From the NCBI GenBank assembly GCA_963695335.1, contig OY968764.1, positions 352,001-416,000 of the forward strand: 64,000 nucleotides of DNA, written 5' to 3'. The notes beneath the pieces are model-generated. The model saw only the letters and a list, made by a program, of their open reading frames with translations, searched no databases and was not told where the DNA came from. Positions 8,756 through 63,733 of this stretch are shown here, piece after piece (the first letter of the stretch is position 1; each line of letters opens with the position of its first letter). Source of the DNA: an uncultured bacterium (GTDB lineage: Bacteria; Babelota; Babeliae; Babelales; Vermiphilaceae). The position numbers and the translations under genes were made by a program.

Positions 8756-8814
8756 CCCTACTTCGCCAAGGCTTCCTACTTCGTTAAAACTACGAAGGAC
8801 ACGTCGTAGGGCAA
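8756..8814. repeat. Family B palindromic element with a second B copy nested (about 8774-8803)
   Basis: CCCTACTTCGCCAAGGCT[TCCTACTTCGTTAAAACTACGAAGGACACG]TCGTAGGGCAAG, lying within an ATCCTC...GAGGAT stem. Confidence 0.75.
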
Positions 8815-9191
8815 GCCTGTAAGTAGTGAGGATCTTTAAGTGTTTATATTGTTGTGTTAACTATTTTGGTTGATTAGCTTCTAATGCTTTTACAATTGCA
8901 TCAAAATCTTTTTTGATAGTGAGTATTCTTTGATGAACTTTCGGATTAAGCGCTCCAGATTCACATAGCTGTCTCAACAATTCAATATATTGGTTGGATG
9001 GGAATGCTTTTAGCATTACACCAGGTAGAACATCACCACCGTTATTAGCAGTATATTGGAGAAGAAGATTTAAAACTTCTTGATTTGGTTTCATTGTAGC
9101 GGCAAATACTTTCAGAGCACGGTTAGGTGTTACGAGGTTGCGGTCAAGTAACATTTTTATTGTAGCAATATTTTGATCAATAAGAGAGCTA

Positions 9192-10041
9192 GGTTCTGTT
9201 GAGTTTTTGAAAAGATAAGTTTTGAAGTATGATAACACCGAAAAAGCAAAAACCAAATCACTAAAACGGTGCTATCATGAAAAAAGAGTATATCAGCGAA
9301 ATGGCCTGGAGCAAAATTTTTAATTTTTTAAAACAGCAAAAAAACATTTATATAAAAGAAGAAAAGGACTGTAAAAAGTTTATAGAAGGGACATTTTGGA
9401 TGGCAAGAACAGGAGCACAATGGAGAGAGTTGCCGGAAAAATATGGAAATTGGAATAGTGTGTTCAGCAGATTTAATGCTTGGTCAAAAAAACATATTTG
9501 GGAAAAATTACTCAGTTTTTGTGCAGAGGATCCCGATATGGAATATGTAATGATTGATGCCACGATAGTCCGCGCACATGCCTGTTCTGCTGGATATGAT
9601 CAATTTAAAAATGAAGGACTGGGAAGAAGTAAAGGTGGTTTTACAAGTAAGATACATGCAACAGTAGATGCTTTAGGCAATCCTTTAAGATTTGTTATTA
9701 CTCCTGGTCAGCGTAATGATATTACTCAGGCTGATATTTTATTAAAAGATATTTCTGAATCATATGTAATAGCGGATAAAGGATATGATTCCACTGAATT
9801 ACGTTCGAAATTAATAGAAAAAAATTGTGTTCCCGTTATTCCTCCAAGATCCAATCGTAAAGAACAATATCAATATGATGAACATCTATATAAAGAGAGA
9901 CATGCGATTGAATGCTTGTTTTCAAAGATAAAACACTTTAGAAGAGTGTTTGCTCGTTTTGATAAATCGGCACGAAATTTTTTATCTTTTCTTTCTTTTG
10001 TGGGAACTTGCATATGGTTACGATGAAAACTCAACAGAACC
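9192..10041 (+). mobile_element. IS5-family insertion sequence (850 bp)
   Basis: Perfect 16-bp TIRs GGTTCTGTTGAGTTTT / AAAACTCAACAGAACC. TA duplication in a CTAG context. Confidence 0.93.
9277..10026 (+). CDS. IS5-family DDE transposase
   Basis: RTGAQWRELP, IDAT, GRSKGGFTSKIH, ADKGYD, YKERHAIECLF. Confidence 0.95.
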   Translation: MKKEYISEMAWSKIFNFLKQQKNIYIKEEKDCKKFIEGTFWMARTGAQWRELPEKYGNWNSVFSRFNAWSKKHIWEKLLSFCAEDPDMEYVMIDATIVRAHACSAGYDQFKNEGLGRSKGGFTSKIHATVDALGNPLRFVITPGQRNDITQADILLKDISESYVIADKGYDSTELRSKLIEKNCVPVIPPRSNRKEQYQYDEHLYKERHAIECLFSKIKHFRRVFARFDKSARNFLSFLSFVGTCIWLR

Positions 10042-10643
10042 TAGATATGAGATATTCTCTTATTTTTTGTTCTTGGCTATCGGTTGTCCATGTACATGGT
10101 TCACCATCTCGGTCTTCAGTTGTTGTATATATTGTTACCACAGGATCTTCGTAAGGAATAAGAAGTTGAATCATTTTTGAAAGATCTGCATTTGATTTTC
10201 CTACATAACCACCACCTTCTAATGCAATTGTTAGAGGAGTGCTTTGTTGATCTTCAAGATTATGAATTGTTGCTCCAAGATTTATCATTGTTTGCATATT
10301 TTTTATACCCTGTGGACTTCCATCACAAGCAAAACGAAATATTACCGGACCGCTATTTCCTGGTCTTTGGTAATTAACTTGAGCTCCTTGTTTTACTAAT
10401 TCTCGTATTTGAGTGTCTGTGATGTTTTTATCGTAAAGTTTTTCACTCAGAGCATCGAATGTTTTTAATATTGGGGTTTGTTTAGGATGCTCACTGATAT
10501 CTTTAATAATGATTGGATATCCACAATCATCAGAAGATGGTGTGCCAAGTTCCATGCTATGCGTTTGTTGTGTGCAGCATGCGATTGTGAGAAGTGCTAT
10601 GGAGAATTTTTTCATCGAGAAATCCTTTTTTTGAGATTGTTAT

Positions 10644-11447
10644 TTATTGCAACGATTGTAAATCATTCATAACATTTTTGATTGTATCTGCTGTAGTACG
10701 TATTGTTTCTTTACTTTTAGAAACTTTATCCATGAGTTGGAAAATAATATCGCTAATATTAGTAGCACCATAAGAAAGAAGAAGATCAAGAATTTCTTTA
10801 TTTGATTGCATACACTGAACAAATTCTTTTAGCCCACGATTAGCTGTCATGAGTTTTAATTTAAGTAATAATTCAATCATAGGGATGTTTTGATTCTTAA
10901 AAAATTGACGTATTATATATTCTCTCAGTTCTTTTTCTGAGTAATCATAATCTCTATGAGTGATGCCATCGTTGTCATGATATGTACTTTCATATATTGT
11001 CACTGTAGGGTTTTCATGATGTAGGAGTAATGTAATCATATCTGTTGAATTGTATTGTACAGCTATATCAAGAGGAAAATGTCCTCCAGGTACACGGTGA
11101 TGAATGTCTGCTTTAAGCTCTATGATTGTTTCCATATTTTTTACACCTTGTTTAGTTCTATCAAAAGCAAAATGGACTGCTATTGCGTATACATATTCTC
11201 CTTTATAATTAAGTATAGCTCCTTTGCTTACCAACTCTCGTATTTCAGTATCAGTGATATGGTCTTTGTAAAGTTGTTCACTGAAATGATTGCGCTTTTT
11301 TGATATTGGGGATTGTGGACGATCGTTATATGGTTTGGCTATTACTTGATATCCGCAATCATCAGAAGATGGTGTGCCAAGTTCCATGCTGTGTATTTGT
11401 TGTGTGCAGCATACGATTGTGAGAAGTGCTATGGAGAGTTTGTTCAT
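10644..11447 (-). CDS. Exported ankyrin-like repeat protein, intact member of the tandem family
   Basis: Signal peptide ending IHS-ME. FPLDIAV, LLLSYGA. N-terminus nearly identical to the gene starting at 10615. Confidence 0.8.
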   Translation of the reverse strand: MNKLSIALLTIVCCTQQIHSMELGTPSSDDCGYQVIAKPYNDRPQSPISKKRNHFSEQLYKDHITDTEIRELVSKGAILNYKGEYVYAIAVHFAFDRTKQGVKNMETIIELKADIHHRVPGGHFPLDIAVQYNSTDMITLLLHHENPTVTIYESTYHDNDGITHRDYDYSEKELREYIIRQFFKNQNIPMIELLLKLKLMTANRGLKEFVQCMQSNKEILDLLLSYGATNISDIIFQLMDKVSKSKETIRTTADTIKNVMNDLQSLQ

Positions 11448-11536
11448 CGAAAGATCCTTTTTTTGTGAGATTGTTTTTGAGTGAATACTGTTTCTGACAG
11501 CAGTACTATAGTATTAATTTGATATTTATTCAATAA

Positions 11537-11563
11537 AAAAATCCCCTTGATAGGGGATTTTTT
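11537..11563. terminator. Rho-independent terminator (bidirectional-type)
   Basis: AAAAATCCCCT-TGAT-AGGGGATTTTT. Confidence 0.75.
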
Positions 11564-11593
11564 TGAATATTAACTAGTATGTAAATATTGCAC

Positions 11594-11842
11594 TTAAGAA
11601 ATAATACATTTACATGCATCATCGTCATCATCATTCTTTTGTTTTTTTTCTAAAGCTTTTTTCTTTTCAAATTCTGAAGCAGCATTTGCTTTTAATTCTC
11701 TAAAAGTATCACGAGCATTTTCATCAGTCTTTTTTCTATGGAATTGACTAAGGAGCATGAATTCATTTGGATCCATAGTAAAAATGAATGATTGATGGAA
11801 TAAAAAAACAAAACAGATTGATGCAAGCAATATATGTTTCAT
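11594..11842 (-). CDS. Small exported protein ending in a CaaX motif (CIIS)
   Basis: Signal peptide, basic stretch, Asp run, C-terminal CKCIIS. Starts 4 bp after the gatB stop. Confidence 0.65.
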   Translation of the reverse strand: MKHILLASICFVFLFHQSFIFTMDPNEFMLLSQFHRKKTDENARDTFRELKANAASEFEKKKALEKKQKNDDDDDACKCIIS

Positions 11843-11846
11843 GCAC

Positions 11847-13316
11847 TTAACCTTGATTTAAATGTTTCTTGATCAAATCATTAATCAGTTGCGGATTACC
11901 TTTACCTTTGGTTTTCTGCATCATTTGACCAACAAAGAAACCAAATAGTTTTTCTTTACCAGAGCGGTATTCAGCAGTTTGCCCAGGATTTGCAGCAATA
12001 ACTTCTTTGACCATTGCTTCCAACTCATCAGCAGAGCCAATTTGTTTGAGGCCTTTTTCTTCAATAATAATCATAGGCTCTTTATCGGTCTGCGCAACAA
12101 ATACAAAAACTTCTTTTGCAGTGGGGCCATTAATAACACCTTGTTCAACCAAGTCAACAATCTGAGCTAAGCGTGCAGGAGTTACTTTGCATGCAGACAA
12201 TGATATTTTTTCTTCTTTGATGTATCCCATCAAATCACGCAAGATCCAATTAATAAGATTTTTATTGTGTGTATGTTTACGTGCTGCATCAAAGTAGTTT
12301 GCAAGATCAATATCTTCTATTAAAATATCCGCTTCATAGTCATGTAAACTAAGCTCTTTGGTAAAGCGTTCAAACTTAGCGAGTGGTAATTCCGGCATGC
12401 TATTTTTTGCTGCGGCAAGACGTTCATCGCTGATAGAGATAATTGGCAAATCTGGTTCTTGGAAAAAGCGATAATCTGCAGTTTCTTCTTTTGATCGCAT
12501 CGTGATAGTTGTTTTTGCTTTTGAATCCCAAAGACGTGTTTCTGAGCGAACTTTGCCACCAGCTTCTAAGATTTCAATTTGGCGTTCTATTTCATATTCT
12601 GTTGCATCGCTGATGAACTTAAATGAGTTAATATTTTTAAGTTCACATTTGGTGCCAAACTCTTTTTGTCCTTTTTTGCGTACAGAAATATTAGTATCCG
12701 CGCGGAATGAACCTTCTTCCATGTTTCCTGTGCAAATTCCGATATATTGCACAATTGAGCGTAAAGTTTTCAGGTATTCACGCACTTCATATGTTGATGA
12801 AATGTCAGGATGACTGACGATTTCCAGTAGTGGAGTGCCGGCACGGTTCAAGTCAACAAAGCTTTCATTGCTATAACTTGAGTGAATATTTTTACCCGCA
12901 TCTTCTTCAATATGAATACGAATTAAATTAATATTTTTTGTGCTGCCATTTTCTAATCTGATAGTGATATATCCATCAGTGCAAATGGGATCAGCTTGCT
13001 GAGTAATTTGAAAGTTTTTTGGTAGATCAGGATAGAAGTAATGTTTACGATCAAAGGTAGATGATTGGTTGATGGTACAGTTGGTTGCAAGGCCTGCTAA
13101 AATTGCATAATCTACTACTTTTTTATTGAGCATTGGCATTGTGCCAGGGTATCCAGCACAGATTTGGCATATATTAGAGTTTGGGTCTTTTGGTATATTG
13201 TTGGGACAGCTACAAAATATTTTTGTGTTAGTGGTAAGTTGCACGTGAACTTCCATACCGATAGTTGCTTCATAAGAAGGGTGCTTATCAAGTACTGTAG
13301 TGATATGTTCTGCCAT
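11847..13316 (-). CDS. gatB: Asp/Glu-tRNA amidotransferase subunit B
   Basis: IGMEVHVQL, RKHYFYPDLPK, HIEEDAGK, DLNRAGTPLLEI, GFFVGQMM. Confidence 0.97.
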   Translation of the reverse strand: MAEHITTVLDKHPSYEATIGMEVHVQLTTNTKIFCSCPNNIPKDPNSNICQICAGYPGTMPMLNKKVVDYAILAGLATNCTINQSSTFDRKHYFYPDLPKNFQITQQADPICTDGYITIRLENGSTKNINLIRIHIEEDAGKNIHSSYSNESFVDLNRAGTPLLEIVSHPDISSTYEVREYLKTLRSIVQYIGICTGNMEEGSFRADTNISVRKKGQKEFGTKCELKNINSFKFISDATEYEIERQIEILEAGGKVRSETRLWDSKAKTTITMRSKEETADYRFFQEPDLPIISISDERLAAAKNSMPELPLAKFERFTKELSLHDYEADILIEDIDLANYFDAARKHTHNKNLINWILRDLMGYIKEEKISLSACKVTPARLAQIVDLVEQGVINGPTAKEVFVFVAQTDKEPMIIIEEKGLKQIGSADELEAMVKEVIAANPGQTAEYRSGKEKLFGFFVGQMMQKTKGKGNPQLINDLIKKHLNQG

Positions 13317-13331
13317 AAAATAGTCCGTTAT

Positions 13332-14843
13332 TTATTGTTTTGTTTCGATTTTGTATTTATCAGAAGGAAAATCTTTATTGATAGTGAGTGTAATCTTAAC
13401 GTTATACATCTCTTCTAATTTTAAGATTGCATCATATTCAATTGTTGTGATGTAGTTGAATATATGAGAATTTAAATGAATTTCAATTTTTTTGTTGCTT
13501 GGTAATGTATGCAACTCATCTTGAATAGCTCGTAATATTTCGTAGCTTTCTGTTTGATATGATTTAACAAAACCTGATCCATGGCACGTGTGACAGCTTG
13601 AAGTGAGTTGTTGAACAAGTGTTTTTCCTGATCGTTTACGTGTCATTTGAACAAGGCCAAATTCTGATATTTTAAGAACTACTGATTGGAATTTGTCTCT
13701 CTCTTTTAAAACTTTTTCAAAAAAACTAAAAACTTTTTCGCGGTTAGAGATGATGCCCATATCAATAAAATCGATAACAATGAGACCACCAATATTGCGT
13801 AATCGTAGTTGTTGCACAACTTCTTCTGCAGCTTCTATGTTTGTTTTAAAAATAGTTTCTTCAAGATTGGTTTTTCCAATAAATCGTCCGGTATTAACAT
13901 CAACAACGGTCATTGCTTCTGTTGATTCAATAATAATTGAACCGCCAGATTTAAGAGAAACTTTTTTCTTGAGAGCTTGTTCAATCTGCTTTTCAATGCC
14001 GTATGCAGCAAAAATATTAACGTTGTCATGATACGCTTGAATAACATGGGCATATTCTGGGGCAATCTGTTTTGCAAATTTATAGAGTTCACTTTGGCTC
14101 TTTTTTGAATCAGTGATGATTGCTTCTACATCGCTATCAAGATGATCACGTACAATTTGAAGCACTAAAGGTAAATCTTCGTGAAGTTTTTCTGAAGGTT
14201 TTGCGGTGGCAAATTTTTTCTCTATGTTGCGCCATTCTTGCACTAAGTAATTAAGATCATGCAAAAGGTCTTTTTCAGCTCGACCATCAGATGTTGTTCT
14301 GATAATTGCACCCATGCCTTCTGGTAAATGTTCTTTAATGATTGTTTTAAGGCGAATACGTTCATCGCGATCTTCAATTTTTTTTGAAACACCGATGCGC
14401 GGTATATTAGGCATAAGAACAATAAATCTACCAGGAAGGGTAAAACAGGTGGTCAGTTTTGCACCTTTTTCATACACAGGCTCTTTGCTGACTTGCACTA
14501 AGATTGGTTCATTTTCTTTGAGGATTTTGCTGATATCTCGTTTTTGAGAGACTTTTTTTTCTATTTTGGGTTCATCTTCATCTTCATCAAGCTGGTCACT
14601 CATTTTTTGCATAGCCAACTCTCTATCAATTTCTGATATATGGAGAAATCCTGCTTTTTGTTGGCCAAATTCAATGAATGCTGTTTGGATGCCGGGCAGC
14701 ACTTTGGTCACAACCCCTTTAAAATAGGCCCGTTCAAGGACTTCGTGGGTTGGGGCGGAGAAATAGATGTTTTGTAGTTTTCCGTCGGTAAGAATGGCTA
14801 TGCGCACTTGCCACGGATTGTCATTTATAATAATTTTTTTCAT
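13332..14843 (-). CDS. rng: Ribonuclease E/G family (RNase G-size)
   Basis: S1 domain (KVLPGIQTAF), VDVNTG, QLRLRNIGGLIVIDFIDM, CHTCHGSG. Confidence 0.92.
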   Translation of the reverse strand: MKKIIINDNPWQVRIAILTDGKLQNIYFSAPTHEVLERAYFKGVVTKVLPGIQTAFIEFGQQKAGFLHISEIDRELAMQKMSDQLDEDEDEPKIEKKVSQKRDISKILKENEPILVQVSKEPVYEKGAKLTTCFTLPGRFIVLMPNIPRIGVSKKIEDRDERIRLKTIIKEHLPEGMGAIIRTTSDGRAEKDLLHDLNYLVQEWRNIEKKFATAKPSEKLHEDLPLVLQIVRDHLDSDVEAIITDSKKSQSELYKFAKQIAPEYAHVIQAYHDNVNIFAAYGIEKQIEQALKKKVSLKSGGSIIIESTEAMTVVDVNTGRFIGKTNLEETIFKTNIEAAEEVVQQLRLRNIGGLIVIDFIDMGIISNREKVFSFFEKVLKERDKFQSVVLKISEFGLVQMTRKRSGKTLVQQLTSSCHTCHGSGFVKSYQTESYEILRAIQDELHTLPSNKKIEIHLNSHIFNYITTIEYDAILKLEEMYNVKITLTINKDFPSDKYKIETKQ

Positions 14844-17065: not shown

Positions 17066-17630
17066 TTAATTGAGCAGAAAACCCTGGCTTTTCAAAGCCA
17101 GGGATGAATGCGAGTCAAAATGGAGGCGATGGAGCAATGCAGTTATAGTAATTGCGAAGAGCCGGCTCTTTAGGCATACTAAAAAACATGGGTAAATATT
17201 GGTGTGGATCTCAAACAAAGCACAGACTTATGTATCATTTAGTATGGATTCCAAAATATAGAAAGAGAGTATTAAAAGGAGAGATAGCAGAAAGAATAAA
17301 AGATCTATTGTATGAATGCGCAGATTTGCAAAGATGGAAAATAGAAGAGCTAAACATTCAATTAGATCATGTTCATATGTTAGTTCAAATGAATCCAGAT
17401 GTAAGCGTGAGCAGGATGGTACAATTGTTTAAAGGAATGACCAGTAAAGTTGTGCGCGAAGAATTTCCAGAATTAAAAGAGTTTTTGTGGGGTAAAAGTT
17501 TTTGGTCAGATGGGTATTTTGCAGAAACAAGTGGTCAGGTAAACGAAGATCGCATACGAGAATACATCCGAAATCAGTAGAATATATCCTAAAAAGCGAA
17601 GCGGGGGCTTTTAAGCCCCCTGTTTTTCAC
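17066..17630 (+). mobile_element. IS200/IS605-family element, tnpA only
   Basis: Subterminal hairpins CCCTGGCTTT-TC-AAAGCCAGGG and GGGGGCTT-TT-AAGCCCCC. Inserted 3' of TTTAT with no target duplication. Confidence 0.88.
17188..17580 (+). CDS. tnpA: IS200-type Y1 (HUH) transposase
   Basis: YHLVWIPKYR, DHVH, FWSDGYF, YIRNQ. Confidence 0.95.
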   Translation: MGKYWCGSQTKHRLMYHLVWIPKYRKRVLKGEIAERIKDLLYECADLQRWKIEELNIQLDHVHMLVQMNPDVSVSRMVQLFKGMTSKVVREEFPELKEFLWGKSFWSDGYFAETSGQVNEDRIREYIRNQ

Positions 17631-17892
17631 TAAATTTTTTCGCTTCTGGATCCAGTACATACGCGGACACGGTGACAGGATCATTTTTATCTTCTTGATT
17701 AACGATCGCTTTTTCAAGATCTTTCCAGCGCACTTTTGCAAGGCGATCTTTTTCTGTAGTAACACGATATTTTCCTGGAGTATTTGCAGCGTCATACCGC
17801 GCCATTTCTTGTTCACGAGCATCATAAAATTTATTAAATAGCTTAGTTTTATATTTATTAAAATTAACAATATAGGTAGCGTTACGAATTGG

Positions 17893-17923
17893 TTTACCCT
17901 TCGAAGCCTTGGCGGAGTAGGGC
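17893..17923. repeat. Family B element in frame in the Nudix gene (PYSAKASKGK)
   Basis: TTACCCTTCGAAGCCTTGGCGGAGTAGGGC. Confidence 0.8.
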
Positions 17924-18319
17924 CTTTCATATGCAACAACAATCCATGTGTATTCATTGTTTGGATCAATGAATATTTCTGCATCATCTAAATCCCACTC
18001 AAGTATACGTTCTAAGATTGCTTCTTGCAGAAATTCATGTGCAGCAGTTTGTATTGGATGTGTTTCACCCTTATCTTTGCCTCCACTGAATGCATCATAG
18101 GTATGTTTTTTGTTTACTCCATAACCTTCTCTGCTGAGTATTACCCATTTTATGTTACGTTGAGTGAATGTTGGCAGCACTGCAGCTGATAAATGGTCAA
18201 ATTGTGAAAGCCTGAAGGTTTGCACTTTGCTGAAGGTAGGAAGTGCAATATTGAGGAGAATTAATAAGGGCAACCATAATTTTTTGCTGCGTATACTATG
18301 TATCATGGTATATCCTTTT

Positions 18320-21711: not shown

Positions 21712-22455
21712 TTACTCAGGGCGAATCAAAACAACCTTGAGGTTTTTGATTTCTTGTTTGTACTGATTACGCAAGGAGGATACTATTAAGTGCGCAAAAC
21801 TGCGGAACAGTTGTTTTTCTTGTATTGGGTCAGCAATTAACGGTGTTTCAAACGTAAGTTTTAAATTTTTACCAGCAACTTCTGAATTAAAACCAACAGC
21901 AGGTAATCCCATGAGAGACAATGTTTGTTTGAGCCAATTGTGTGCTGTGGTTACCATTGTATCATTCCATGTTGCAGGAATATGACGTGTTTTAAGTACT
22001 GCATCAGCAGTTTTAGGTTGCTGAACTTTTTCTGGAGCATGTGTTTTTGGCTTGCCCTTCGAAGCTTCAGCGAAGTAGGGCTGATTTTCATGTTTTGTCT
22101 GAGGTGCTGTTTGTCTTACTGTAGTGGGTTGCTGCGTAATTGGCTTCACTGCATTTTTTTCTTCTACAATTGGAGTAACCTTTAAAGAGGAGGACTTGCC
22201 CTTCGTAGCTTCAGCGGAGTAGGGGCGGCATTCTTTTATTTTTTGCTGAGGTTTAAATATTGGTTTTTCATGAGTATTTGGTTTATCATTACCAAAAAAA
22301 ATACCAACCTTTGCAGGCTTGGTAGACATGCCAAAAAAATTTCTTTCTTCTTGTTCAAAAATTTTAATGGAAAACTCTTTTGGGTTTTCTGCTTGATTCC
22401 ATGCTTTTTCAATAGCTTTTATTATTGAAGATGCTTGCTCGATGATAGATTTCAT
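21712..22455 (-). CDS. jag: Jag/KhpB-like protein (Jag_N domain, linker, reduced KH-like region)
   Basis: MKSIIEQASSIIKAIEKA...EQEERNFFGMSTKPAKV. Located just upstream of mnmE. Confidence 0.7.
   Translation of the reverse strand: MKSIIEQASSIIKAIEKAWNQAENPKEFSIKIFEQEERNFFGMSTKPAKVGIFFGNDKPNTHEKPIFKPQQKIKECRPYSAEATKGKSSSLKVTPIVEEKNAVKPITQQPTTVRQTAPQTKHENQPYFAEASKGKPKTHAPEKVQQPKTADAVLKTRHIPATWNDTMVTTAHNWLKQTLSLMGLPAVGFNSEVAGKNLKLTFETPLIADPIQEKQLFRSFAHLIVSSLRNQYKQEIKNLKVVLIRPE
22051..22080. repeat. Family B element in frame in jag (PYFAEASKGK)
   Basis: CTTGCCCTTCGAAGCTTCAGCGAAGTAGGG. Confidence 0.85.
22195..22224. repeat. Family B element in frame in jag (PYSAEATKGK)
   Basis: CTTGCCCTTCGTAGCTTCAGCGGAGTAGGG. 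Confidence 0.85.
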
Positions 22456-37955: not shown

Positions 37956-39305
37956 ATGAAGATAAATAAGCAGATTTTATATAAAAAAATAGCGCTTGTT
38001 GGAATCATTTTATCTTTTTTATCTATTGTTGAAACTGCTGTCTCAAAAACCGTATCTTCTAAAATTGCATCCGTAGTAACACCCTACTCCCCTGAAGCTT
38101 CGAAGGGCAAGCAACCAGTTGTTCCTGTTATTAAAGAAAACGTCATACAAGAAATTACCCACAAAAATGTTGTAGAAAAAACTTCTCAGAAATTTAATGG
38201 TAAATTATCACTTGAACAAATTCATACATTATCGCAGGGGCAAGATAGAGGTGAGATCACTCGATCATTAAAAATTACTCCAGTCACACAGATACAATCT
38301 GACAAATTTACCCAATCACAAGCGCATATGTCATTACCAGAAATAAAAAAATTGATTGATGCAAAATATAACATAAAACCATATCAAAAGATGATTGATG
38401 CAATTATAGGCCGGGAAGTTGAATTTAAAGATGGGTATTATGTTTTTTATCATGGCATGGATAATGAATGGCGTGTTCCCCAAGATTTATATACGCGGTT
38501 GTATGTCCATTTTAAAAAGTTGCCAGAAAATATTTTGCAGAACTTTATATTTTTACGATTTGGACTGCTATCTGCTCCCTCTAGTGTTCAAAGTTTTTTG
38601 GTGAGCAAACTGAAAGAAAATGGACTTATTAATGATCATGAATTGGGTGAATTTTTATATGCAGCTAATTTAGCATTATTTGGTAATGTGGGAACTGATC
38701 CTGAATGTACGTGGCAATATTTTATAAAGTCACGTGGGCACACATTTCCTGATCGTAAAACATATGAAAAAATTTTAGGTATATTTGGGTTGCCTTACAC
38801 TTATATTGATCAATTAATGGCATTAACTAAGTTATATCAAACAAAAGAACAGACAATTATTCAGATATTTGTGCCAAAAGATCGCGTTGATGAAATTGGT
38901 TATTTAGCATGGATTAGGGGTAATCCTGCGCACAAAAAAACTATAGATATGGTGTTGCGGAGTGTGAAAGATAAAAAATTTGAAAAATCTTCATTCGCTC
39001 TGGATTATTATACGGCACTGTTTAAACGGGAGCAGGAGAAAAACCCAATATTTAGTAATTTATTGCAACGAGTACAAGCTGGTGATTTTAGTTTAAGTTA
39101 TTTCTTGAAGTTTTACCGTAATTATCCTGAATTAATTGAGGATATTAATAGATATCAAGCGCGTCTTATTTTTACACCTGAAGTGTTGTTGAATCCGTTA
39201 TCTGGGGTGAAAATATTTAGGTATTCAATAGCAACTGCTCAGCAGTTGCAAGAATACCATAAGAAATTTGATGAAATATTTAAGAAAATTATTACGGCTA
39301 TTTAA
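37956..39305 (+). CDS. Exported protein, putative ART-like fold (paralog 3)
   Basis: VFYHGM / LYAAN / IIQIFVP / QARLIF. Confidence 0.6.
   Translation: MKINKQILYKKIALVGIILSFLSIVETAVSKTVSSKIASVVTPYSPEASKGKQPVVPVIKENVIQEITHKNVVEKTSQKFNGKLSLEQIHTLSQGQDRGEITRSLKITPVTQIQSDKFTQSQAHMSLPEIKKLIDAKYNIKPYQKMIDAIIGREVEFKDGYYVFYHGMDNEWRVPQDLYTRLYVHFKKLPENILQNFIFLRFGLLSAPSSVQSFLVSKLKENGLINDHELGEFLYAANLALFGNVGTDPECTWQYFIKSRGHTFPDRKTYEKILGIFGLPYTYIDQLMALTKLYQTKEQTIIQIFVPKDRVDEIGYLAWIRGNPAHKKTIDMVLRSVKDKKFEKSSFALDYYTALFKREQEKNPIFSNLLQRVQAGDFSLSYFLKFYRNYPELIEDINRYQARLIFTPEVLLNPLSGVKIFRYSIATAQQLQEYHKKFDEIFKKIITAI
38082..38111. repeat. Family B element in frame (PYSPEASKGK)
   Basis: CCCTACTCCCCTGAAGCTTCGAAGGGCAAG. 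Confidence 0.85.
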
Positions 39306-45648: not shown

Positions 45649-46443
45649 ATGAATATGAAAAAAAAATTACTGATTGTTACAGCAGCAATTATAACACCGG
45701 TCATTTTTGTTGGGCTGAGAAGAAATTCAGCTCCTCTTTTTTCTGTTGAAAAATATCAATGTGTTCAAGATGCAGCTCTTTCTGATGATTACTTTTCTTC
45801 TATTAATAATGCGCTCGCTGATTTGTGTGATAAACATTGTGCAGCGCATGTTATTATTGATCAATTGAAGCAGCAATTTCCTGTGATTAATAAAATAACT
45901 ATTGCGTACAGACCTACAGCTACCCACGTTACATTATCGGTACATGAACCTGTGTGTTGTTTGAATAACTCTATTATTCTCACAACACAAAAAGAGTTGT
46001 TTCCTAAGCATGTTTTTGCTGAGGATGCACTTACTGATATTCTGAATATTACGTGTCATTTGCCATGCGATGCTTCTTCTACCGCTCAAACCCTTCGATA
46101 CACCCCTACGGGGCACTCCCAGACTTCGCACAAGGCTTCGTCGGGCACGGCAGGGCGAGCGGATGTAAGTAGTTTGGTTACAAATTTATTGCAAAAATTA
46201 CCTTGTAACATGAGCGAAAGTTATAACATTGAGCTCATGGCAGAGCACTGTGTGCGTTTTACAGATAAACAACAGCCACAATTTGTTATCGTCTCATCTC
46301 TTGCTCAAGAAAAATTGGCGCAGTTATGTACTCAATGTAAAGAAGTTAAACGCACTATTACTGAAAAAAATGGATTTGATAAAGGAATTAAGTGGGTAGC
46401 GGATACGCGATTTGCTCATTATATTGTTGCTTATAAAGCCTAA
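45649..46443 (+). CDS. Divergent FtsQ/DivIB-like protein
   Basis: N-terminal TM, POTRA-like segment (LKQQFPVINKITI), C-terminal ADTRF, directly upstream of ftsA. Confidence 0.6.
   Translation: MNMKKKLLIVTAAIITPVIFVGLRRNSAPLFSVEKYQCVQDAALSDDYFSSINNALADLCDKHCAAHVIIDQLKQQFPVINKITIAYRPTATHVTLSVHEPVCCLNNSIILTTQKELFPKHVFAEDALTDILNITCHLPCDASSTAQTLRYTPTGHSQTSHKASSGTAGRADVSSLVTNLLQKLPCNMSESYNIELMAEHCVRFTDKQQPQFVIVSSLAQEKLAQLCTQCKEVKRTITEKNGFDKGIKWVADTRFAHYIVAYKA
46083..46163. repeat. Family A half-element with a 33-nt B-like element nested (46118-46150), in frame
   Basis: Matches 52166-52214 once the 33-nt insert is removed. Confidence 0.85.
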
Positions 46444-47745: not shown

Positions 47746-49074
47746 ATGATAGATTTTGAACAAGAAGCGTTGCATCGTCAGAAATCAATGGTTTCAATTA
47801 AAGTGATTGGTGTTGGTGGCGCCGGGGGGAATGCTGTTAACAGCATCATAGAATCAGGCTGTCAGGGAATTGGATTTATTGTTGCAAATACAGATGCGCA
47901 AGCTTTGGAGTTTTCAAAAGCGCAACACAAAATTCAAATCGGTGTTAAGTCCACAAAAGGGTTAGGGGCGGGGGCGAATCCAGAAACTGGAAAACGTGCT
48001 GCAGAAGAAGACCTTGATAAAGTGATGGATGCTCTTGATGGAGCAGACATCGTTTTTGTTGTTGCAGGAATGGGTGGTGGAACTGGATCAGGTGCAACAC
48101 CAGTCATTGCCAAAGCATTACGTGATAAAGGCGTTTTATCAATAGCAATAGTCATTCGACCATTTATGATAGAAGGTAAGCGCCGTGCAGCAACAGCAGA
48201 AGAAGCAATTCAAAAACTGAAACAAGATGTGGATGCATTGATTATTGTACCAAATGAAAAGTTGCTCGAAGTTGTTGATGAGCAAGTTTCTATGAAAGAT
48301 GCATTTGCAATGATCAATGATGGTATTTTAAGCCAATCAGTGCGCGGATTATCTGATATTATTACACGTCCAGGGCACATCAATGTTGATTACGCTGATA
48401 TTCGCACCATTATGAAAGATCGTGGTCTTGCTGTTATGGGAACTGGTAAAGCATCAGGAAAAGGGCGTGCGCACAGTGCTGCTGTCAAAGCAATATCATC
48501 TCCATTGTTAGAAAACATGAGTGTTGTTGGTGCACGTGGCGTGCTTTGCAATATTACCGGTGGTAAAGATTTGGGTCTTCGTGAAATTAGTGAAGCTGCA
48601 TCTGTGGTATATGAACAAGCTCATGAAGATGCAAATATTATCATCGGTTCGGTCATTGATGAAAATTTAAAAGATGAAGTTATTGTAACAATTATTGCAA
48701 CTGACTTTGAAAGACAAGATGCGCAACATGTACAAGAAGTAAAAGAAGAACCTGTGATTGAATTTGTTGCACAACACGAAGAAGTTGCGCATGTTTGCCT
48801 GTCCGCCGTAGCCTCGGCGAAGGAGGATGCTGCGCCGGTGATAGAAGAACCAATTATTGAACCTCTTCCATTGCAAATGGATATGGACCTGTCCGCCCCT
48901 TCGACAGAGCTCAGGATAAACTCCACCTTGGCGAAGGAGGAGGCAAAAGAAGAAGATATGCAAGATTTTATGAAAAAAAGTCATGCAGATTTTTTTGAAC
49001 AAGCCGACAACACATTTGGCGGTGCAGTAGATTCCAAAGACTTGGATGTACCGACGTTTATGCGTCAAAAATAG
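47746..49074 (+). CDS. ftsZ: Cell division protein FtsZ
   Basis: GVGGAGGNA, NTDAQAL, GMGGGTGSG, C-terminal DVPTFMR. Confidence 0.98.
   Translation: MIDFEQEALHRQKSMVSIKVIGVGGAGGNAVNSIIESGCQGIGFIVANTDAQALEFSKAQHKIQIGVKSTKGLGAGANPETGKRAAEEDLDKVMDALDGADIVFVVAGMGGGTGSGATPVIAKALRDKGVLSIAIVIRPFMIEGKRRAATAEEAIQKLKQDVDALIIVPNEKLLEVVDEQVSMKDAFAMINDGILSQSVRGLSDIITRPGHINVDYADIRTIMKDRGLAVMGTGKASGKGRAHSAAVKAISSPLLENMSVVGARGVLCNITGGKDLGLREISEAASVVYEQAHEDANIIIGSVIDENLKDEVIVTIIATDFERQDAQHVQEVKEEPVIEFVAQHEEVAHVCLSAVASAKEDAAPVIEEPIIEPLPLQMDMDLSAPSTELRINSTLAKEEAKEEDMQDFMKKSHADFFEQADNTFGGAVDSKDLDVPTFMRQK
48798..48827. repeat. Family B element in frame in the FtsZ linker (LSAVASAKED)
   Basis: CCTGTCCGCCGTAGCCTCGGCGAAGGAGGA. 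Confidence 0.85.
48888..48941. repeat. Family B element with an A fragment nested, in frame in the FtsZ linker (LSAPSTELRINSTLAKEE)
   Basis: CCTGTCCGCC[CCTTCGACAGAGCTCAGGATAAACTCCA]CCTTGGCGAAGGAGGA. Confidence 0.85.
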
Positions 49075-54845: not shown

Positions 54846-54875
54846 CCTGCCCGCCGTAGCTTTATGCGAAGGAGG
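54846..54875. repeat. Family B element that supplies the C-terminus and stop codon of the GNAT gene
   Basis: CCTGCCCGCCGTAGCTTTATGCGAAGGAGG. The minus strand reads PSFA*. Confidence 0.75.
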
Positions 54876-55428
54876 GCCAGTATTCAAAGAACACATAACC
54901 ATTGTCATCAAACTTCTCTTTAAACCCAAGTTCTTTATAAACTTTCTGTGCAGGAAAATTACTGACGCGTGTCCATAATGCAATGTGCGTTGCACCCAGA
55001 TTAAACATCTGTTTCATTGCGTATTCTGCTAACAATTTACCATATCCTTTACCACGGAACTCATGCGTAACTGCCAAGAAAAGTATTCTACCTTCTTGTG
55101 CGTTTTCCATAAAATATGCAGTGAAACCGGCCAACTTGTTGTCTTGATAAAGAACTTTAATATGCAGTGATCCAAAATGCATAGGATTAGCATCAGGTGT
55201 GCGGTGTTTGATCATAAATGCAGGGGACGATTCTTCACTTGCAAGTAACCAGTACCAATTTTGATGGAAGATATCCATAATTGCTTGTGTGTCACGTGTG
55301 ACATTAAAATCGTAGATTGGGCCTTGAGTAGTTTGTTGGTGTTGTTGGTGAATATAAAGGCTAATTCCGCTACATGTTGCAGCGATGATGCTTATTGATA
55401 AAATTATTTTTTTTGTACGGGTTGTCAT
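54862..55428 (-). CDS. GNAT-family acetyltransferase with an N-terminal membrane anchor
   Basis: LAVTHEFRGKGYGK, NFPAQKVYKELGF. Confidence 0.85.
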   Translation of the reverse strand: MTTRTKKIILSISIIAATCSGISLYIHQQHQQTTQGPIYDFNVTRDTQAIMDIFHQNWYWLLASEESSPAFMIKHRTPDANPMHFGSLHIKVLYQDNKLAGFTAYFMENAQEGRILFLAVTHEFRGKGYGKLLAEYAMKQMFNLGATHIALWTRVSNFPAQKVYKELGFKEKFDDNGYVFFEYWPSFA

Positions 55429-58598: not shown

Positions 58599-58701
58599 TA
58601 TGGGATATTTACAAAGACAAGAATCAATAGAGGGTATTCGTATAAACCCCTTCATATAAAACAGAATAGCAGAAACCCTGGGAAATACCAGTCTTTCTCA
58701 G

Positions 58702-58772: not shown

Positions 58773-58807
58773 AGAAATTCTGCTCCTGATTATAATTTTG
58801 CGGGTTA

Positions 58808-59485
58808 TTATGCAAATTTTTGGCTGCGTTGAATAACACGACCAATTATTCTGAAATGATCTTTACCACGAACCAACGCTATAGGAGGTTGTTTGTGGTT
58901 AACAGATTCAAGAACAATAAAGTCTTCAGTATACGTAACTTGCATAATTGCTTTGATTGGAGTATCGTTGCCAAATTCAACAGCAGCGATATCACCTGAA
59001 CGTGTCCATACTTCTGGGGAAACGATTAAATAATCACCTTTAACAAATGTTGGTGCCATTGCGTTGTTTTCAACACAAAGAGCAAACATTGCATTGTCAG
59101 CTGAATTGAATACTGGAACAAAAACATCTTTGTAACCAGTAGTAACTTGCATTAATTGATTGTTGTAAGGGGATGGATTTGATGGAATTTCTCCAACAAC
59201 AGGAACAACTTTAACTTGTAATTCAAGGTCAGATTGTTCAGGCATGCTGACATTTTTATCAATGTCATCAGTGCGTTGACGGTGTTCTGCAAATAGATCG
59301 ATTGGGCTAATTTCAAAAGCTTGAGATAATTTTCTTAAAGAATCTTCATTCCAACGGCGAGTACCGTTTTTGATATGGGTTAGATAACTTTCAGACATAC
59401 CAGTTTTTTCTGCTAAAATCTTAGTTGTCCAACCTTTTTCTCTGAGAAGTTCTTTGACTCGTAATTGAGTTGAAACTGAAACCAT
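58808..59485 (-). CDS. XRE-type HTH plus S24-like domain repressor (LexA/CI-like)
   Basis: LAEKTGMSESYLTHIKNG HTH. VPVVGEI, FALCVENNAMAP...GDYLIV, LESVN, IIGRVI. Confidence 0.85.
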   Translation of the reverse strand: MVSVSTQLRVKELLREKGWTTKILAEKTGMSESYLTHIKNGTRRWNEDSLRKLSQAFEISPIDLFAEHRQRTDDIDKNVSMPEQSDLELQVKVVPVVGEIPSNPSPYNNQLMQVTTGYKDVFVPVFNSADNAMFALCVENNAMAPTFVKGDYLIVSPEVWTRSGDIAAVEFGNDTPIKAIMQVTYTEDFIVLESVNHKQPPIALVRGKDHFRIIGRVIQRSQKFA

Positions 59486-59573
59486 TGCTTTATATCTCCT
59501 TAGAATGTGGCTATACTTACAGTAAATATTTGAAACTCTGTATTATTTCTAATTGTACGCATCTTGACGTCCT

Positions 59574-60311
59574 TTGTCAAATGGAAATGAAAAATCTATG
59601 GTCAAAATTAGACAAACAGGCAAGATAAAAAAAAACTCGTATGAAGCGGCTGCATGGAGCCAAAACGCAGTTGTTGTGGGCATTGATGAGGTTGGTAGAG
59701 GTTGTATCGCAGGCCCTGTGGTTGCTGCAGCGGCAATCTTACCCCTTAGCAAGGCGCATCGTAAGCTTAAAGACTCAAAAATCATGACTCAGCAAGAACG
59801 GGAAGATGCTTTTCGGTGGATTGCAAAACATTGTGCGTATGGCGTGGGGGTTGTGCATCATCGTATTATTGATCAGCGCAATATTTATCATGCAACGCTT
59901 ATTGCCATGAAAAAAGCACTGGTTAATCTTCTTGCAGTGTCATCTCAGCGGCCAACAGCTATTTTGACTGATGCTATGCCACTCGATTTAGCCGATACCC
60001 ATTTTGATGATATTCCTGTCTATTATTTCCCTAAAGGTGAATCCAAATCAAGTTCTATTGCTGCTGCATCTATTGTTGCAAAGGTTACCAGAGACGCCAT
60101 GATGGGCATATATGATAAGGTAATCCCTGGTTATCAATGGGTTGATAATAAAGGATATAGAACGCCTGTACATAAGCGTGCGGTCAAAGAGGGACAGCAT
60201 TCCATTATTCATAGGTTGCGGTATTTGGAGAATATAGAGAATAGGGAAGAAGTAGTAGAAGCGCAGTTATTAATAGGTGGTAGTGATGAACAAGGGCAGC
60301 TGTTTTGCTGA
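59574..60311 (+). CDS. rnhB: Ribonuclease HII
   Basis: GIDEVGRGCIAGPV, LKDSK, IAAASIVAKVTRD, NKGY. Start may be ATG at 59598. Confidence 0.95.
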   Translation: MSNGNEKSMVKIRQTGKIKKNSYEAAAWSQNAVVVGIDEVGRGCIAGPVVAAAAILPLSKAHRKLKDSKIMTQQEREDAFRWIAKHCAYGVGVVHHRIIDQRNIYHATLIAMKKALVNLLAVSSQRPTAILTDAMPLDLADTHFDDIPVYYFPKGESKSSSIAAASIVAKVTRDAMMGIYDKVIPGYQWVDNKGYRTPVHKRAVKEGQHSIIHRLRYLENIENREEVVEAQLLIGGSDEQGQLFC

Positions 60312-60900
60312 AGTAATTGAAAGCTCTTTAACCGGTTGGTTAGCGCAAAGCTGGGCATGGGATACGTTCCCAGAATTTGGCTCATTTGTAGCAATTGAAG
60401 GTAAAAAACGTACTGTGTTTGGAATTGTGCACCAAGTGCAAACTGGTTCCATGGATTCAGTGCGATATCCATTTCCCTATCAAAAAACAGAAGAAGAGCT
60501 GCTCAAAGAGCAACCGCAAATATTTGAATTTCTTAAAACAACCTTTTCATGTATCACCGTTGGGTATCAAGAAAAAAAATCAATATCATATCTTATCGCA
60601 CCAGAACCACCTAAAATTCATGCCTTTGTTGCACATCCCAGTACCGAATTAAGTAAAAACTTCTTTGCAAGCACTCGCTACATGCATCTTCTTTTTACGC
60701 ATTCTGCACAAATTTTTAATATGGATGAGTTGATGCTTGCATTATTAAAGCAACATATTGAGCTTAAGATCTTGACTCAAGATAAAATCAATTCGTTTAT
60801 GCAAACCTATTCGCTACTCACCGGCAATGATTATCGGCGTATTAAACTATTCTTACAACGAGCTGAGCATATGCTTGGCAATAATCAATTAGAATTCTAG
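60286..60900 (+). CDS. HAS-barrel-like protein
   Basis: AEVIES, PEFGSFV, VFGIV, EQPQIFEFL, PPKIHAFV. Family assignment is from recall of the motif pattern. Confidence 0.6.
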   Translation: MNKGSCFAEVIESSLTGWLAQSWAWDTFPEFGSFVAIEGKKRTVFGIVHQVQTGSMDSVRYPFPYQKTEEELLKEQPQIFEFLKTTFSCITVGYQEKKSISYLIAPEPPKIHAFVAHPSTELSKNFFASTRYMHLLFTHSAQIFNMDELMLALLKQHIELKILTQDKINSFMQTYSLLTGNDYRRIKLFLQRAEHMLGNNQLEF

Positions 60901-60974
60901 CGCACTTGATGTGCGTGCAGTTGCGTAGTAAAATAGAAAAATTATCTTATAGTTTTTAATTTCGTAGGATCGTA

Positions 60975-61772
60975 ATGAAAAGTTCTCATCAGATTATTTT
61001 TTTATTGAGTTATTGTATGTTTGGTACCGTTATTGCAATGGAAAAAGAATCCATCCAAAAGTTGAGTACAAAAGATACACGGTTTGTTGATGTTGTTAAT
61101 TATAAAGTTGTTGATAAGTTTGTGGATGGATATCCTATTCATTACGATAGTAAGTACGAGGTTCAGAAATATCACAAAGATACTATTTCTTTTGCTTTTC
61201 CTGTTAAATCCCTTGGTTTATTGCCCATCGAGTATTATGGTGAAAAAAGATTTTTTAATATATTGCCTGATTACTTTACAGGACCTTTAGGTAATCGAGG
61301 AGATATATTTACTGTTGCTGATCCTGCAATCAGACAGGCAGCTGTTGTTGGTGGAACTGTGCAATATCATGATAACACAATAGGTCGCATATATCTGTAT
61401 TTGGGATTTAATGTGAGTAATTTTAGATCTCTGCATAAAGGGCGTGAGAAAATTTATCCGGCAACAGTTATGGCTTTGCAGCTTATCAAAGAAGAGACAG
61501 AATATACACCTCGGTTGTCAAAATGGCATGCATTCGACGGTGTGATGCCTTTTGATGATACAGATATGATAGAAGAAGTTAAAAAACAACGTCCTGAAAC
61601 AAAAATCTCTGATTGGGATGATATTTTAGTGCGTTCTCTTATGAAAAAGTTACTTGGTAGAAATTTTCGTGATTTTAATTTTGAAGCGCGAATTTTTACA
61701 GAAAGTTATTGGAATAAAAGAGAAAAGGCGTTCAAAGAGATCATGAATAGTTCTGAAGAGAGTAAAAAATAG
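60975..61772 (+). CDS. Hypothetical exported protein
   Basis: Signal peptide ending VIA-ME. Confidence 0.7.
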   Translation: MKSSHQIIFLLSYCMFGTVIAMEKESIQKLSTKDTRFVDVVNYKVVDKFVDGYPIHYDSKYEVQKYHKDTISFAFPVKSLGLLPIEYYGEKRFFNILPDYFTGPLGNRGDIFTVADPAIRQAAVVGGTVQYHDNTIGRIYLYLGFNVSNFRSLHKGREKIYPATVMALQLIKEETEYTPRLSKWHAFDGVMPFDDTDMIEEVKKQRPETKISDWDDILVRSLMKKLLGRNFRDFNFEARIFTESYWNKREKAFKEIMNSSEESKK

Positions 61773-61800
61773 TTATATATAAAGTTGCAACAGGATTTAC

Positions 61801-62691
61801 ATGTTTAGTTTTATAAAAAATAAACTTCAAAAAATATTTAGCACAGTCACATCAAAGTTAGGTTCGTTTTTTAGTAGAACTACCATTGATGAAGCGGCTC
61901 TCAAAGAGTTAGAAATTTTACTCATTTCCAGCGATGTTGGTGTGAGCACCACACGTTCTATTATTGTAGCACTGCGCAAACAGATTGGCACAGGAATTAT
62001 TGATGGCGCACAATTAAAAAAATACATGCACGTTATTCTTTTGGACATTTTGACGCAACATAAAGCACCTGATTTGAGTGATCATAAGGTGTTTCTTTTT
62101 GTTGGAATTAATGGTAGTGGAAAAACAACAAGCATTGGCAAATTAGCGCATCAATATAAACAACAAGGCAAAAAAGTACTGTTAGTTGCAGCAGATACAT
62201 TCCGTGCAGCAGCTCCAGAGCAACTGAATCAATGGGCGTTGCAAGTGGGCGTTGATATTTTGATTGGCAAAGAAGGTCAAGATCCAGCATCGCTTGTGTT
62301 CCAGGGTTGTGAAAAATTTAAACATGATCATTACGACATTCTTATTATTGATACTGCGGGGCGCTTGCAGACAAAAATCAATTTGATGCATGAACTTGCA
62401 AAAATTAAGCGTTGTGTGCAAAAACAACTTGCAGATCAATCCGTTGTTACGTTACTGACAATTGATGCAATGCTTGGGCAAAACTCATTTGAACAGGCAA
62501 AATTGTTTAAAGAAAGCACTGATGTTTCAGGTATTATTTTAACCAAAATGGATGGTACTGGAAAAGGTGGTATTGTATTTGCAATTGCTCAAGAATTGAT
62601 TATTCCTGTTGTTTTTTTAACATTTGGCGAACAGTCTGATCAGATTAAGAAATTTGATGCGCAAGAGTATGTTACTGATTTATTAGGCTAA
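61801..62691 (+). CDS. ftsY: SRP receptor GTPase FtsY
   Basis: GINGSGKTT, DTFRAAA, DTAGRLQ, TKMDGTGKGG. Confidence 0.97.
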   Translation: MFSFIKNKLQKIFSTVTSKLGSFFSRTTIDEAALKELEILLISSDVGVSTTRSIIVALRKQIGTGIIDGAQLKKYMHVILLDILTQHKAPDLSDHKVFLFVGINGSGKTTSIGKLAHQYKQQGKKVLLVAADTFRAAAPEQLNQWALQVGVDILIGKEGQDPASLVFQGCEKFKHDHYDILIIDTAGRLQTKINLMHELAKIKRCVQKQLADQSVVTLLTIDAMLGQNSFEQAKLFKESTDVSGIILTKMDGTGKGGIVFAIAQELIIPVVFLTFGEQSDQIKKFDAQEYVTDLLG

Positions 62692-62693
62692 AG

Positions 62694-62721
62694 AAAATCC
62701 CCAGATTTTTCTGGGGATTTT
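62694..62721. terminator. Bidirectional terminator
   Basis: AAAATCCCCAGA-TTTT-TCTGGGGATTTT. Confidence 0.75.
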
Positions 62722-62725
62722 AATT

Positions 62726-63733
62726 TTATTTAACTGGTACAATATATTTTTTCATTTCTGCTGGAATCACAATATTCAACGCTTGCGCAGTCTGCATGTT
62801 CACAAATATAGCAGCCCTGTCCTTCGACCTGTCCGAAAAAGCCTTGGCGAAGTAGGAACCTAAAATAGGCAATTCATACGGTTTTTTGTGATCAATTAAA
62901 AGTTGCATAGCAATATGTGCTGCATCAACACCTGCTTGATGATAATCAACACCACGAGCCATTAATGGGCCGTATTGCACAAGCATATTATCACTTACAA
63001 TAAAAGGTTTTTGTGCTTTGCGTGCTAAGTCAGCAATCAGTGCAACGCTGTTTGCGATGGTGTTATCAGTTGGCGCAAGTAATGCGTCTACTTTACGCAA
63101 TGCGCTGATCGTTGCAGGTTCGATATCTGATTCAGATGCAACGCCGATTGTTACTGGAGTATAACCTGCACGTTCTAATTCTGTAACCATTATTTTTGAT
63201 GTAGCAACTGCATTGGTTTCAGCGGTGTTAAAAATAATTCCAACAGTTTGTATGTTGGGCAGCAGTTGTTGCATTGCTTCTATTTCAGCACGAACATTAA
63301 TCATATCACTTACGCCACAAATGTTTGATGCATCAAAACTGATCCCCAACTCTGGTGCAATAGTCACAGCTGCAATAATAATTGGTTTTGTGTTTTCAAC
63401 AGATGCCATTGCTTGCGCTGCAGGAGTTGCAATTGCATAGATTGCATCAATATCTTGGCGTGCATGGAACTGTTGTGCGATGGCATAGAGGGTATTAATA
63501 GAACCTTCACCGTTGCGGATGGTAAAACCAATATCGGCACCCAATTTTTTTTGTAGGCTGGTGATAAAACCATCTCGGGCAGCATCAAGTGCTGGGTGAG
63601 AAGCGGTTTGGATGATGCCGATAGTCCATGTATAGTTTTTTTCAGAACGATTGACTGTTTTTTTGATAATAATGGCACTGAACACAAAGGTTGCGATAAG
63701 GCAAATAGTTATGATTGCGCGATTGTTTTCCAC
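62726..63733 (-). CDS. ABC transporter substrate-binding protein (ABC_sub_bind type)
   Basis: HPALDAARDGF, IATPAAQA, NICGVSD, PTDNT, GVDY. Confidence 0.88.
   Translation of the reverse strand: MENNRAIITICLIATFVFSAIIIKKTVNRSEKNYTWTIGIIQTASHPALDAARDGFITSLQKKLGADIGFTIRNGEGSINTLYAIAQQFHARQDIDAIYAIATPAAQAMASVENTKPIIIAAVTIAPELGISFDASNICGVSDMINVRAEIEAMQQLLPNIQTVGIIFNTAETNAVATSKIMVTELERAGYTPVTIGVASESDIEPATISALRKVDALLAPTDNTIANSVALIADLARKAQKPFIVSDNMLVQYGPLMARGVDYHQAGVDAAHIAMQLLIDHKKPYELPILGSYFAKAFSDRSKDRAAIFVNMQTAQALNIVIPAEMKKYIVPVK
62816..62857. repeat. Family B element with a nested fragment, in frame (SYFAKAFSDRSKDR)
   Basis: CCTGTCCTTCGACCTGTCCGAAAAAGCCTTGGCGAAGTAGGA, 42 nt. Confidence 0.8.

Follow-up and report, generated by a model that had tools for sequence, protein, structure and literature searches.

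How does a hairpin of about thirty nucleotides (nt) come to lie, in frame, within unrelated proteins? The question is raised by a window of 64,000 nt from an uncultured bacterium of the Vermiphilaceae (Babelota), positions 352,001 to 416,000 of contig OY968764.1 (assembly GCA_963695335.1). In a preliminary description made from the letters of this window, ten copies of a GC-rich imperfect hairpin, here called family B, were taken for a mobile mini-element that colonises proteins. The window corresponds to C1:352001-416000 of a genome, hereafter G000, that consists of a single contig (C1) of 1.37 Mb with 35.7% GC. We propose, with a probability of about 0.6, that family B is a dispersed, non-autonomous selfish hairpin of single-stranded DNA (ssDNA), spread by an SLX1-like GIY-YIG nuclease and filtered by selection at the protein level.

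A 30-nt hairpin unit and its junctions

A profile of 30 columns, iterated until convergence, finds 97 copies of family B in G000 at a score of at least 18 (104 at a score of at least 14) and 0, 0, and 0 in three codon shuffles; the relative G008 carries 89. The unit is made up of a 4-nt foot, most often CCTG (31 of the 97 copies), CTTG (20), or CGTG (15), and of a 26-nt hairpin having an outer stem of 6 bp, a conserved GWA/GNA internal loop, and a short inner stem. The case for the hairpin rests on covariation of its arms, because the folding energy of a single copy is no better than that of shuffles (z -1.8 to +0.6). In a set of 165 distinct G000 and G008 copies, picked by their core only, the Watson-Crick counts of the outer-stem pairs all exceed the maximum of 1000 column shuffles. 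The counts, against these maxima, are 141 vs. 92 for columns 5-30, 134 vs. 100 for 8-27, and 104 vs. 70 for 9-26, with 157 vs. 101 for 16-19; the true pairing reaches 0.78 vs. 0.23-0.42 for slid control pairings, and these figures are not probabilities since the copies are kin. On the B strand, G.T wobbles outnumber C.A mismatches 43 to 20, so that this strand is likely the folded one.

A strict B pattern is present in 33 of 61 genomes (G000 and 60 relatives), the reversed pattern used as control giving 0 matches. It also occurs in five of five further genomes, picked because they carry the nuclease described below and labelled Alphaproteobacteria, Verrucomicrobiota, Bacteroidota, Paceibacterota, and Pseudomonadota. 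An Rfam scan at gathering score matches only tRNA and tmRNA, and no family for B. The observation of family B is real, and the length and ends of the unit, as well as the covariation of its stem, are established.

Empty orthologous sites define the insert. In the C-terminal linker of FtsZ, the copy at 48798..48827 (+) is an exact insertion of 30 nt, CCTG plus hairpin, between TG and TGCT of the orthologue in G002; it causes no duplication and encodes LSAVASAKED. In the open reading frame (ORF) 37956-39305 (+), the copy at 38082..38111 (-) is a 30-nt insertion at a codon boundary, exactly ten codons relative to the empty site of G005. At G000:134746, a copy lies inside another copy, whose orthologue in G008 is the unbroken parent (net +30). 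Indeed, removal of 30 nt restores the host in 14 of 16 such B-in-B nests, nine of them at CGW^AG and five at CYTTR^GCG. The 30-nt length is therefore intrinsic to the family. Copies also nest at TG^A in a second repeat, family A (n=15; eight of 30 nt, seven of 31 nt), and 25 of the 97 copies of G000 and 28 of the 89 of G008 lie inside family A. In 56 free copies the left flank resembles T-K-G (G at -1 in 32 of them), or CCA when read on the opposite strand. No target duplication is seen at the sites compared with empty orthologous sites. Among sequencing runs, no RNA data set was listed, and the contigs obtained, all of low coverage, gave no evidence on empty alleles. Not all sites are clean: the copy at 17893 overwrites a loop of equal length, a composite at 62816 adds 33 nt, and nets of 24 and 27 nt occur elsewhere.

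Family A (CGCTCGYCCTGAG...TCGAAGG type) has more than 120 unbroken copies per genome and lies in the window at 46075-46165 and 48898-48925; the two families insert into one another. A further repeat, of the CCCC...GAA...TGGGG type, also hosts B copies, nested at GA^AG (G008:C1:576655 and 1147914; G000:C1:443790 and 1212664). An arm variant, CGC..., is confined to apical loops of other B copies, where it precedes GCG; the target bases downstream are complementary to its left arm (G000:C1:550014, 749314, and 997984; G008:C1:504824 and 1054748).

tRNA-end cassettes and their nuclease gene

A variable-loop copy lies at most 190 nt from the tRNA end in 19 of 34 tRNA genes of G000 and 17 of 35 of G008, vs. 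25/1500 and 16/1500 random windows, respectively. An inverted hairpin begins exactly at CCA in 15/34 and 11/35 of these genes. The cassette reads as follows: the tRNA or tmRNA 3' end, the inverted hairpin, which has the CCA as its first three bases, usually the foot and a second CCA (readable as a 3-nt duplication), an AT-rich spacer, a forward hairpin and then, often, a nuclease gene. The forward hairpin is often near +88, and the GCGAAG-NNTG upstream of it covaries with the first arm. At tRNA ends the B strand is antisense to the transcript. The tmRNA of G000 carries the same cassette, and G000 and G008 do not have the same set of decorated tRNAs. B is found at none of the 33 tRNA ends of either G001 (same genus) or G023 (same family), two genomes devoid of both the strict B pattern and the nuclease (30 loci fetched per genome).

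G000 has three small GIY-YIG genes, two of which follow B cassettes, at C1:205103-205345 and, behind a displaced tRNA-Gln end, at C1:895128-895370. The protein is a single domain of about 80 residues, with PF01541 above cut-off, and its closest relatives are labelled Dependentiae/Babeliales. A structure model (predicted local distance difference test, pLDDT, 94.8) has HIGLE, UPF0213, and Slx1 as best matches, and the alignment has invariant Y, Y, G, R, H, N, and E columns.

A quick maximum-likelihood tree was built from 91 columns of 161 GIY-YIG proteins, 70 from nuclease similarity matches and 91 from Pfam searches; nine short partial matches (L108-L116), the 461-residue frame L007, two filtered loci, and lower-ranked matches were left out. 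The clade of the G000 nuclease holds 96 rows (Shimodaira-Hasegawa-like approximate likelihood ratio test, SH-aLRT, 95). B lies upstream of 86 of its 96 genes and downstream of 13, a tRNA called by ARAGORN lies within 400 nt of 58, and family A accompanies five. In contrast, a UPF0213-like clade of 37 rows has family A at 34 loci (on both sides at 27) and B upstream at three; the family A nuclease of G000 is encoded at C1:565584. Each repeat family thus goes with its own nuclease clade. A third clade, of 12 rows, is separate from the B clade and has NTS-like motifs at 4/12 loci; its motifs suggest that it is Ssn-like. Among Pfam-picked loci only, B is upstream at 35 of 42 in the B clade vs. 5 of 49 in the other small GIY-YIG clades.

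Across genomes, which are kin and not independent, a clade profile detects the nuclease in 30 of 33 B-positive vs. 10 of 28 B-negative ones, a few of the matches containing stops. At E <= 1e-10, this profile matches 3682 cluster representatives, other GIY-YIG clades included. The nuclease has no match in plasmids and four weak partial matches in viral contigs. The preliminary description had suggested looking for a GIY-YIG or a RAYT/HUH gene flanked by the element. The former exists, as a member of an SLX1-like clade having two inverted B hairpins, but these lie upstream only, behind tRNA 3' ends; no HUH gene of this kind was found among 30 Y1 loci, a single one of which has B within 1.5 kb.

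Some cassettes lack a tRNA. A new noncoding RNA upstream of them was considered and rejected for the cases that could be traced: in that of G000, a serine-recombinase island of about 9 kb (G000:C1:885171-894800), integrated in tRNA-Gln, has moved away the 3' end of the tRNA along with the nuclease gene and a duplicated B cassette. Several others lie at tmRNA ends. A similar stretch of about 30 nt ending with CCA is found at L043, L046, L052, L054, L058, L067, L072, L229, and L238; such stretches are probably attachment arms with displaced tRNA ends, as demonstrated for the G000 case only. Finally, tandem cassette repeats, at L049, L082, L086, L240, and the tRNA-Asp and tRNA-Val of G000, have starts that vary within the first arm, as if new units entered at the tRNA end and older ones were pushed downstream.

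Copies within genes and in the window

Gene calls were made with a simple hexamer caller written for the analysis, according to which 87% of G000 and 85% of G008 are coding. Family B lies inside genes in 48/97 and 34/89 cases, respectively, a strong depletion with respect to these fractions. The idea of an element colonising proteins has therefore to be qualified: the copies are independent and orthologues lack the peptides, but genes are tolerated rather than preferred landing sites. In G000, 40 genes are hosts, including that of FtsZ. Among 12 that were scanned, those of PolA, Rho, DnaG, and BamD are above NCBIfam cut-offs and two are PheT- and FtsK-like. One copy, at G000:C1:1143177, lies in a reading frame broken by two frameshifts (a pseudogene, or else an assembly error), which its motifs suggest to be phosphoenolpyruvate (PEP)-synthase-like.

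In the two genomes, 54 of 82 coding copies use one of the six frames (antisense, at a codon boundary), where stop-free frames predict about 17 and a flank-preference model about 21%. This frame encodes SSFAKASADR or PYSAKATKGK. Of the remaining frames, two are free of stops in 94-98% of copies, yet they are used only five and six times. The B strand is antisense to the transcript in 68 of the 82. Moreover, coding 31-nt nests in family A have lost one neighbouring base in 3/3 cases, which may descend from one ancestor, vs. 0/4 for intergenic ones; that base is kept in 252 of 253 unbroken family A copies. The preliminary reading, that a mobile mini-element lands in unrelated proteins and keeps the frame, is supported. 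We read these sequence patterns as protein-level selection acting on an intrinsically 30-nt unit, whose retention would be filtered to one frame. A search of proteomes for decayed B peptides gives no hidden excess above block shuffles.

All ten hairpins of the preliminary description are present in the window, nine in or overlapping ORFs. Translation also bears out the peptides reported in both orientations. The canonical 30-mer is found at seven sites (profile score 37.7-49.5), the inner copy being the one that scores at 8756 (start 8774) and 62816 (start 62828). The three others are variants, at 54846 (5-nt loop, 12.8), 46118 (longer loop, 7.8), and 48888 (loop holding a piece of family A, -3.9).

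The only intergenic site is a B-in-B composite at 8756..8815 (-), where a 30-nt copy (8774-8803) is placed at CGA^AG of another; an IS5-like DDE transposase gene (PF01609, PF13340) lies nearby, at 9277-10026. In ORF 17611-18306 (-), the copy at 17893..17922 (+), encoding PYSAKASKGK, has a degenerate foot and takes the place of an equally long host loop (net 0 codons vs. three close orthologues). The gene at 21712-22455 (-) carries two copies, one in its linker at 22051..22080 (+; PYFAEASKGK) and one at 22195..22224 (+; PYSAEATKGK). Among the host names first proposed, Jag holds only weakly for this gene (Jag_N E 0.001, Jag_EloR E 0.003), and the Nudix and ART-like labels have no Pfam or NCBIfam support. 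A long-loop variant at 46118..46150 (-) lies inside a family A repeat, in a gene upstream of ftsA that is FtsQ-like by position only and has about 29 residues more than most orthologues. The FtsZ linker has a second copy, of 54 nt (48888..48941, +), with a piece of family A in place of the left inner arm. At 54846..54876 (+), a 31-nt copy encodes the last codons and the stop of a GNAT gene (54862-55428, -). Finally, the 42-nt composite of an ABC substrate-binding gene (62816..62857, +) consists of a 12-nt partial copy and a full copy (62828-62857), for a net gain of 33 nt (11 codons) vs. six orthologues. Internal copies keep the frame, as was claimed, but two of them are not simple insertions: that at 17893 is a replacement and the 42-nt composite adds 33 nt.

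Had these peptides been shared features of the proteins, orthologues would carry them without conservation of the DNA. This is not the case: the corresponding sites of orthologues are without them, and independent B-type peptides lie elsewhere in the orthologous linkers or genes, namely in the FtsZ linker (G005, G009, and probably G003), the FtsQ-like gene (G002), the Jag-like linker, and ORF 37956, whose G005 orthologue has its own copy further along the same N-terminal region.

How family B may spread

Given the linkage of repeat and gene and the precedent of SsnA, the nuclease may recognise the folded B strand while DNA is transiently single-stranded, and may nick on the 5' side of the foot (TGG^C) as well as at the base of the stem. 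The 30(31)-nt piece would then be pasted by host ligation or gap repair into nicks lying 3' of T-K-G-like sites or within other hairpins, host bases being sometimes overwritten. A CCA-armed variant entering the CCA of a tRNA gene would leave the tRNA end intact, and selection would keep such copies there. Within genes, selection would keep net multiples of three, mostly in the frame giving a small polar peptide and often in linkers.

Several points weigh against this proposal. GIY-YIG enzymes are known as hydrolases, so that no catalyst is known for the joining step. Linkage gives no direction, and tRNA ends rich in B could be carrying the gene along. No conserved right end was found behind the nuclease gene, and in dispersed copies the foot is that of the tRNA-proximal hairpin while the arms resemble those of the gene-proximal one, a combination that simple excision does not explain. 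The B-positive genomes G007, G016, and G045 are without a detected clade member, whereas ten B-negative genomes have one. Microhomology of 1-2 nt at junctions was rejected, as p is 0.0002-0.0004 with nested copies and 0.06-0.08 without them. A leading/lagging-strand bias of coding copies (33:15 in G000, 17:17 in G008) was rejected as well, and its absence also counts here, as do the quick tree method, the kinship of the genomes, the simple gene caller, and the possible single ancestor of the compensated nests.

The proposal could be pushed further, in that the 80-residue protein would be a minimal single-strand cut-and-paste recombinase, excising the hairpin and joining it at CCA-like sites, with tRNA and tmRNA ends as a self-restoring home and the repeat shaped as a neutral 10-residue linker; we consider this stronger version doubtful. 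Also unlikely is a spread by host processes alone (template switching, gene conversion, hairpin repair), the GIY-YIG gene being a passenger, or a homing or defence gene for which B-decorated tRNA ends are a safe site. It would account for the sites where host bases were replaced or where the net length is 24, 27, or 33 nt, for the mutual nesting of families A and B, for tandem partial cassettes that begin at variable points of the first arm, and for the three B-positive genomes without the gene. However, 5' and 3' ends are fixed at dozens of unrelated sites, insertion points in hairpins are fixed too, and the nuclease clades are family-specific (A 34/37, B 86/96).

We hold it very unlikely that B is an RNA element kept by the host for tRNA 3'-trailer processing, termination, or mRNA stability, with coding copies as by-products. 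The hairpin does start exactly at CCA in 15/34 tRNA genes, and at the tmRNA, and the same strand is transcribed at tRNA ends and in most genes. But the strand opposite to the transcribed sense is the one favoured by the wobble pairs and by the internal loop of purines, tRNAs are undecorated in G001 and G023, the decorated set differs between G000 and G008, and Rfam has no matching family. Mobilisation of both families by the UPF0213-like clade flanked by family A is highly improbable: although about a quarter to a third of B copies lie inside family A, B is upstream of only 3/37 genes of that clade, and B at tRNA ends and most coding copies are without A sequence. There is, lastly, hardly any likelihood that B is a repetitive extragenic palindromic (REP) sequence moved in trans by an HUH enzyme (RAYT or IS200 TnpA). 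The tetranucleotide foot, the lack of duplication, and the insertion 3' of a short motif recall IS200/IS605 elements and REPtrons, and G000 has three IS200-like TnpA genes with equal scores. Yet Y1_Tnp occurs in 12/33 B-positive vs. 6/28 B-negative genomes (p 0.26) and is not found in the B-rich G008, G009, G033, and G003; the single B copy close to a Y1 locus is inside the next gene, and the B foot is never GTAG. An IS200-like TnpA gene (PF01797, 17152-17580) beside the copy at 17893 was rejected as a partner, having its own hairpin ends and not tracking B.

REPtrons and IS200/IS605 elements rely on recognition of ssDNA hairpins, with inverted pairs 20-100 nt apart and insertion beside a short motif. 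Family B likewise has hairpins, inverted pairs, short-motif insertion, and no target duplication. Unlike in a REPtron, no HUH enzyme tracks it, the linked protein being a GIY-YIG nuclease. It differs as well from miniature inverted-repeat transposable elements (target-site duplication, 70-300 bp), being 30 nt long and without duplication vs. empty sites. Like REPs, RPE-4, and RPE-6, it is a stem-loop of 20-40 nt with covarying arms and many dispersed copies, some intragenic. According to two reports, Rickettsia palindromic elements (RPEs) and GTAG/CGTC REPs share with B in-frame location in unrelated, often housekeeping proteins, a tetranucleotide foot, dimers, and nested groups (PMC3733652, PMC10969869). 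In the same reports, RPE-4, RPE-6, and other intragenic REPs are short palindromes found in frame (PMC3733652, PMC10969869). B was said, at 30 bp, to be much shorter than classical RPEs, but size alone is not new. A terminal GTAG or CGTC is present in 0/186 B copies.

According to PMC11893778, SsnA cuts only ssDNA, near its oriented cognate hairpin, and Ssn/NTS-SRM resembles B in linking a tiny single-domain GIY-YIG gene to an oriented hairpin of about 30 nt, having a short non-palindromic foot and also dispersed in the genome. Unlike Ssn (cd10448), the B nuclease appears to belong to another GIY-YIG clade (SLX1/HIGLE-like, 80 residues). B hairpins are upstream and inverted, with B downstream at only 13/96 loci, whereas Ssn has repeats on both sides; half of the B copies lie in frame within genes, unlike the Ssn hairpins. 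The B cassette is anchored on the CCA of tRNA and tmRNA, while “tRNA” occurs 0 times in the main text of that paper, whose degenerate SRM pattern matches 0/186 B copies and has no occurrence in G000 and G008 (PMC11893778). Family B thus works like REP/RPE and Ssn-NTS elements but fails their sequence tests. A literature search, outside which lie subscription papers, figures, and supplements, gave no description of the B repeat or of the tRNA-end cassette.

What is added here is the link of the cassette to the in-frame copies, along with the frame bias and the junctions. Ever since the Rickettsia RPEs, it has been an open question how palindromic repeats that have no known transposase enter genes in frame. 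With the ends of a repeat, its preferred targets, and one candidate enzyme of 80 residues defined, the question becomes testable with oligonucleotides. Should this enzyme prove to be an ssDNA nuclease specific for hairpins, the Ssn toolbox would extend to another GIY-YIG clade. If the recombinase version were true, GIY-YIG clades with their own hairpins (B, A, and NTS) would parallel the HUH REPtrons, and the entry of RPE-type inserts into proteins would be explained. For the bacterium and its genus, family B adds sequence, repeatedly and independently, to the linkers of FtsZ and of the Jag-like protein, and is also found in PolA, Rho, DnaG, and BamD.

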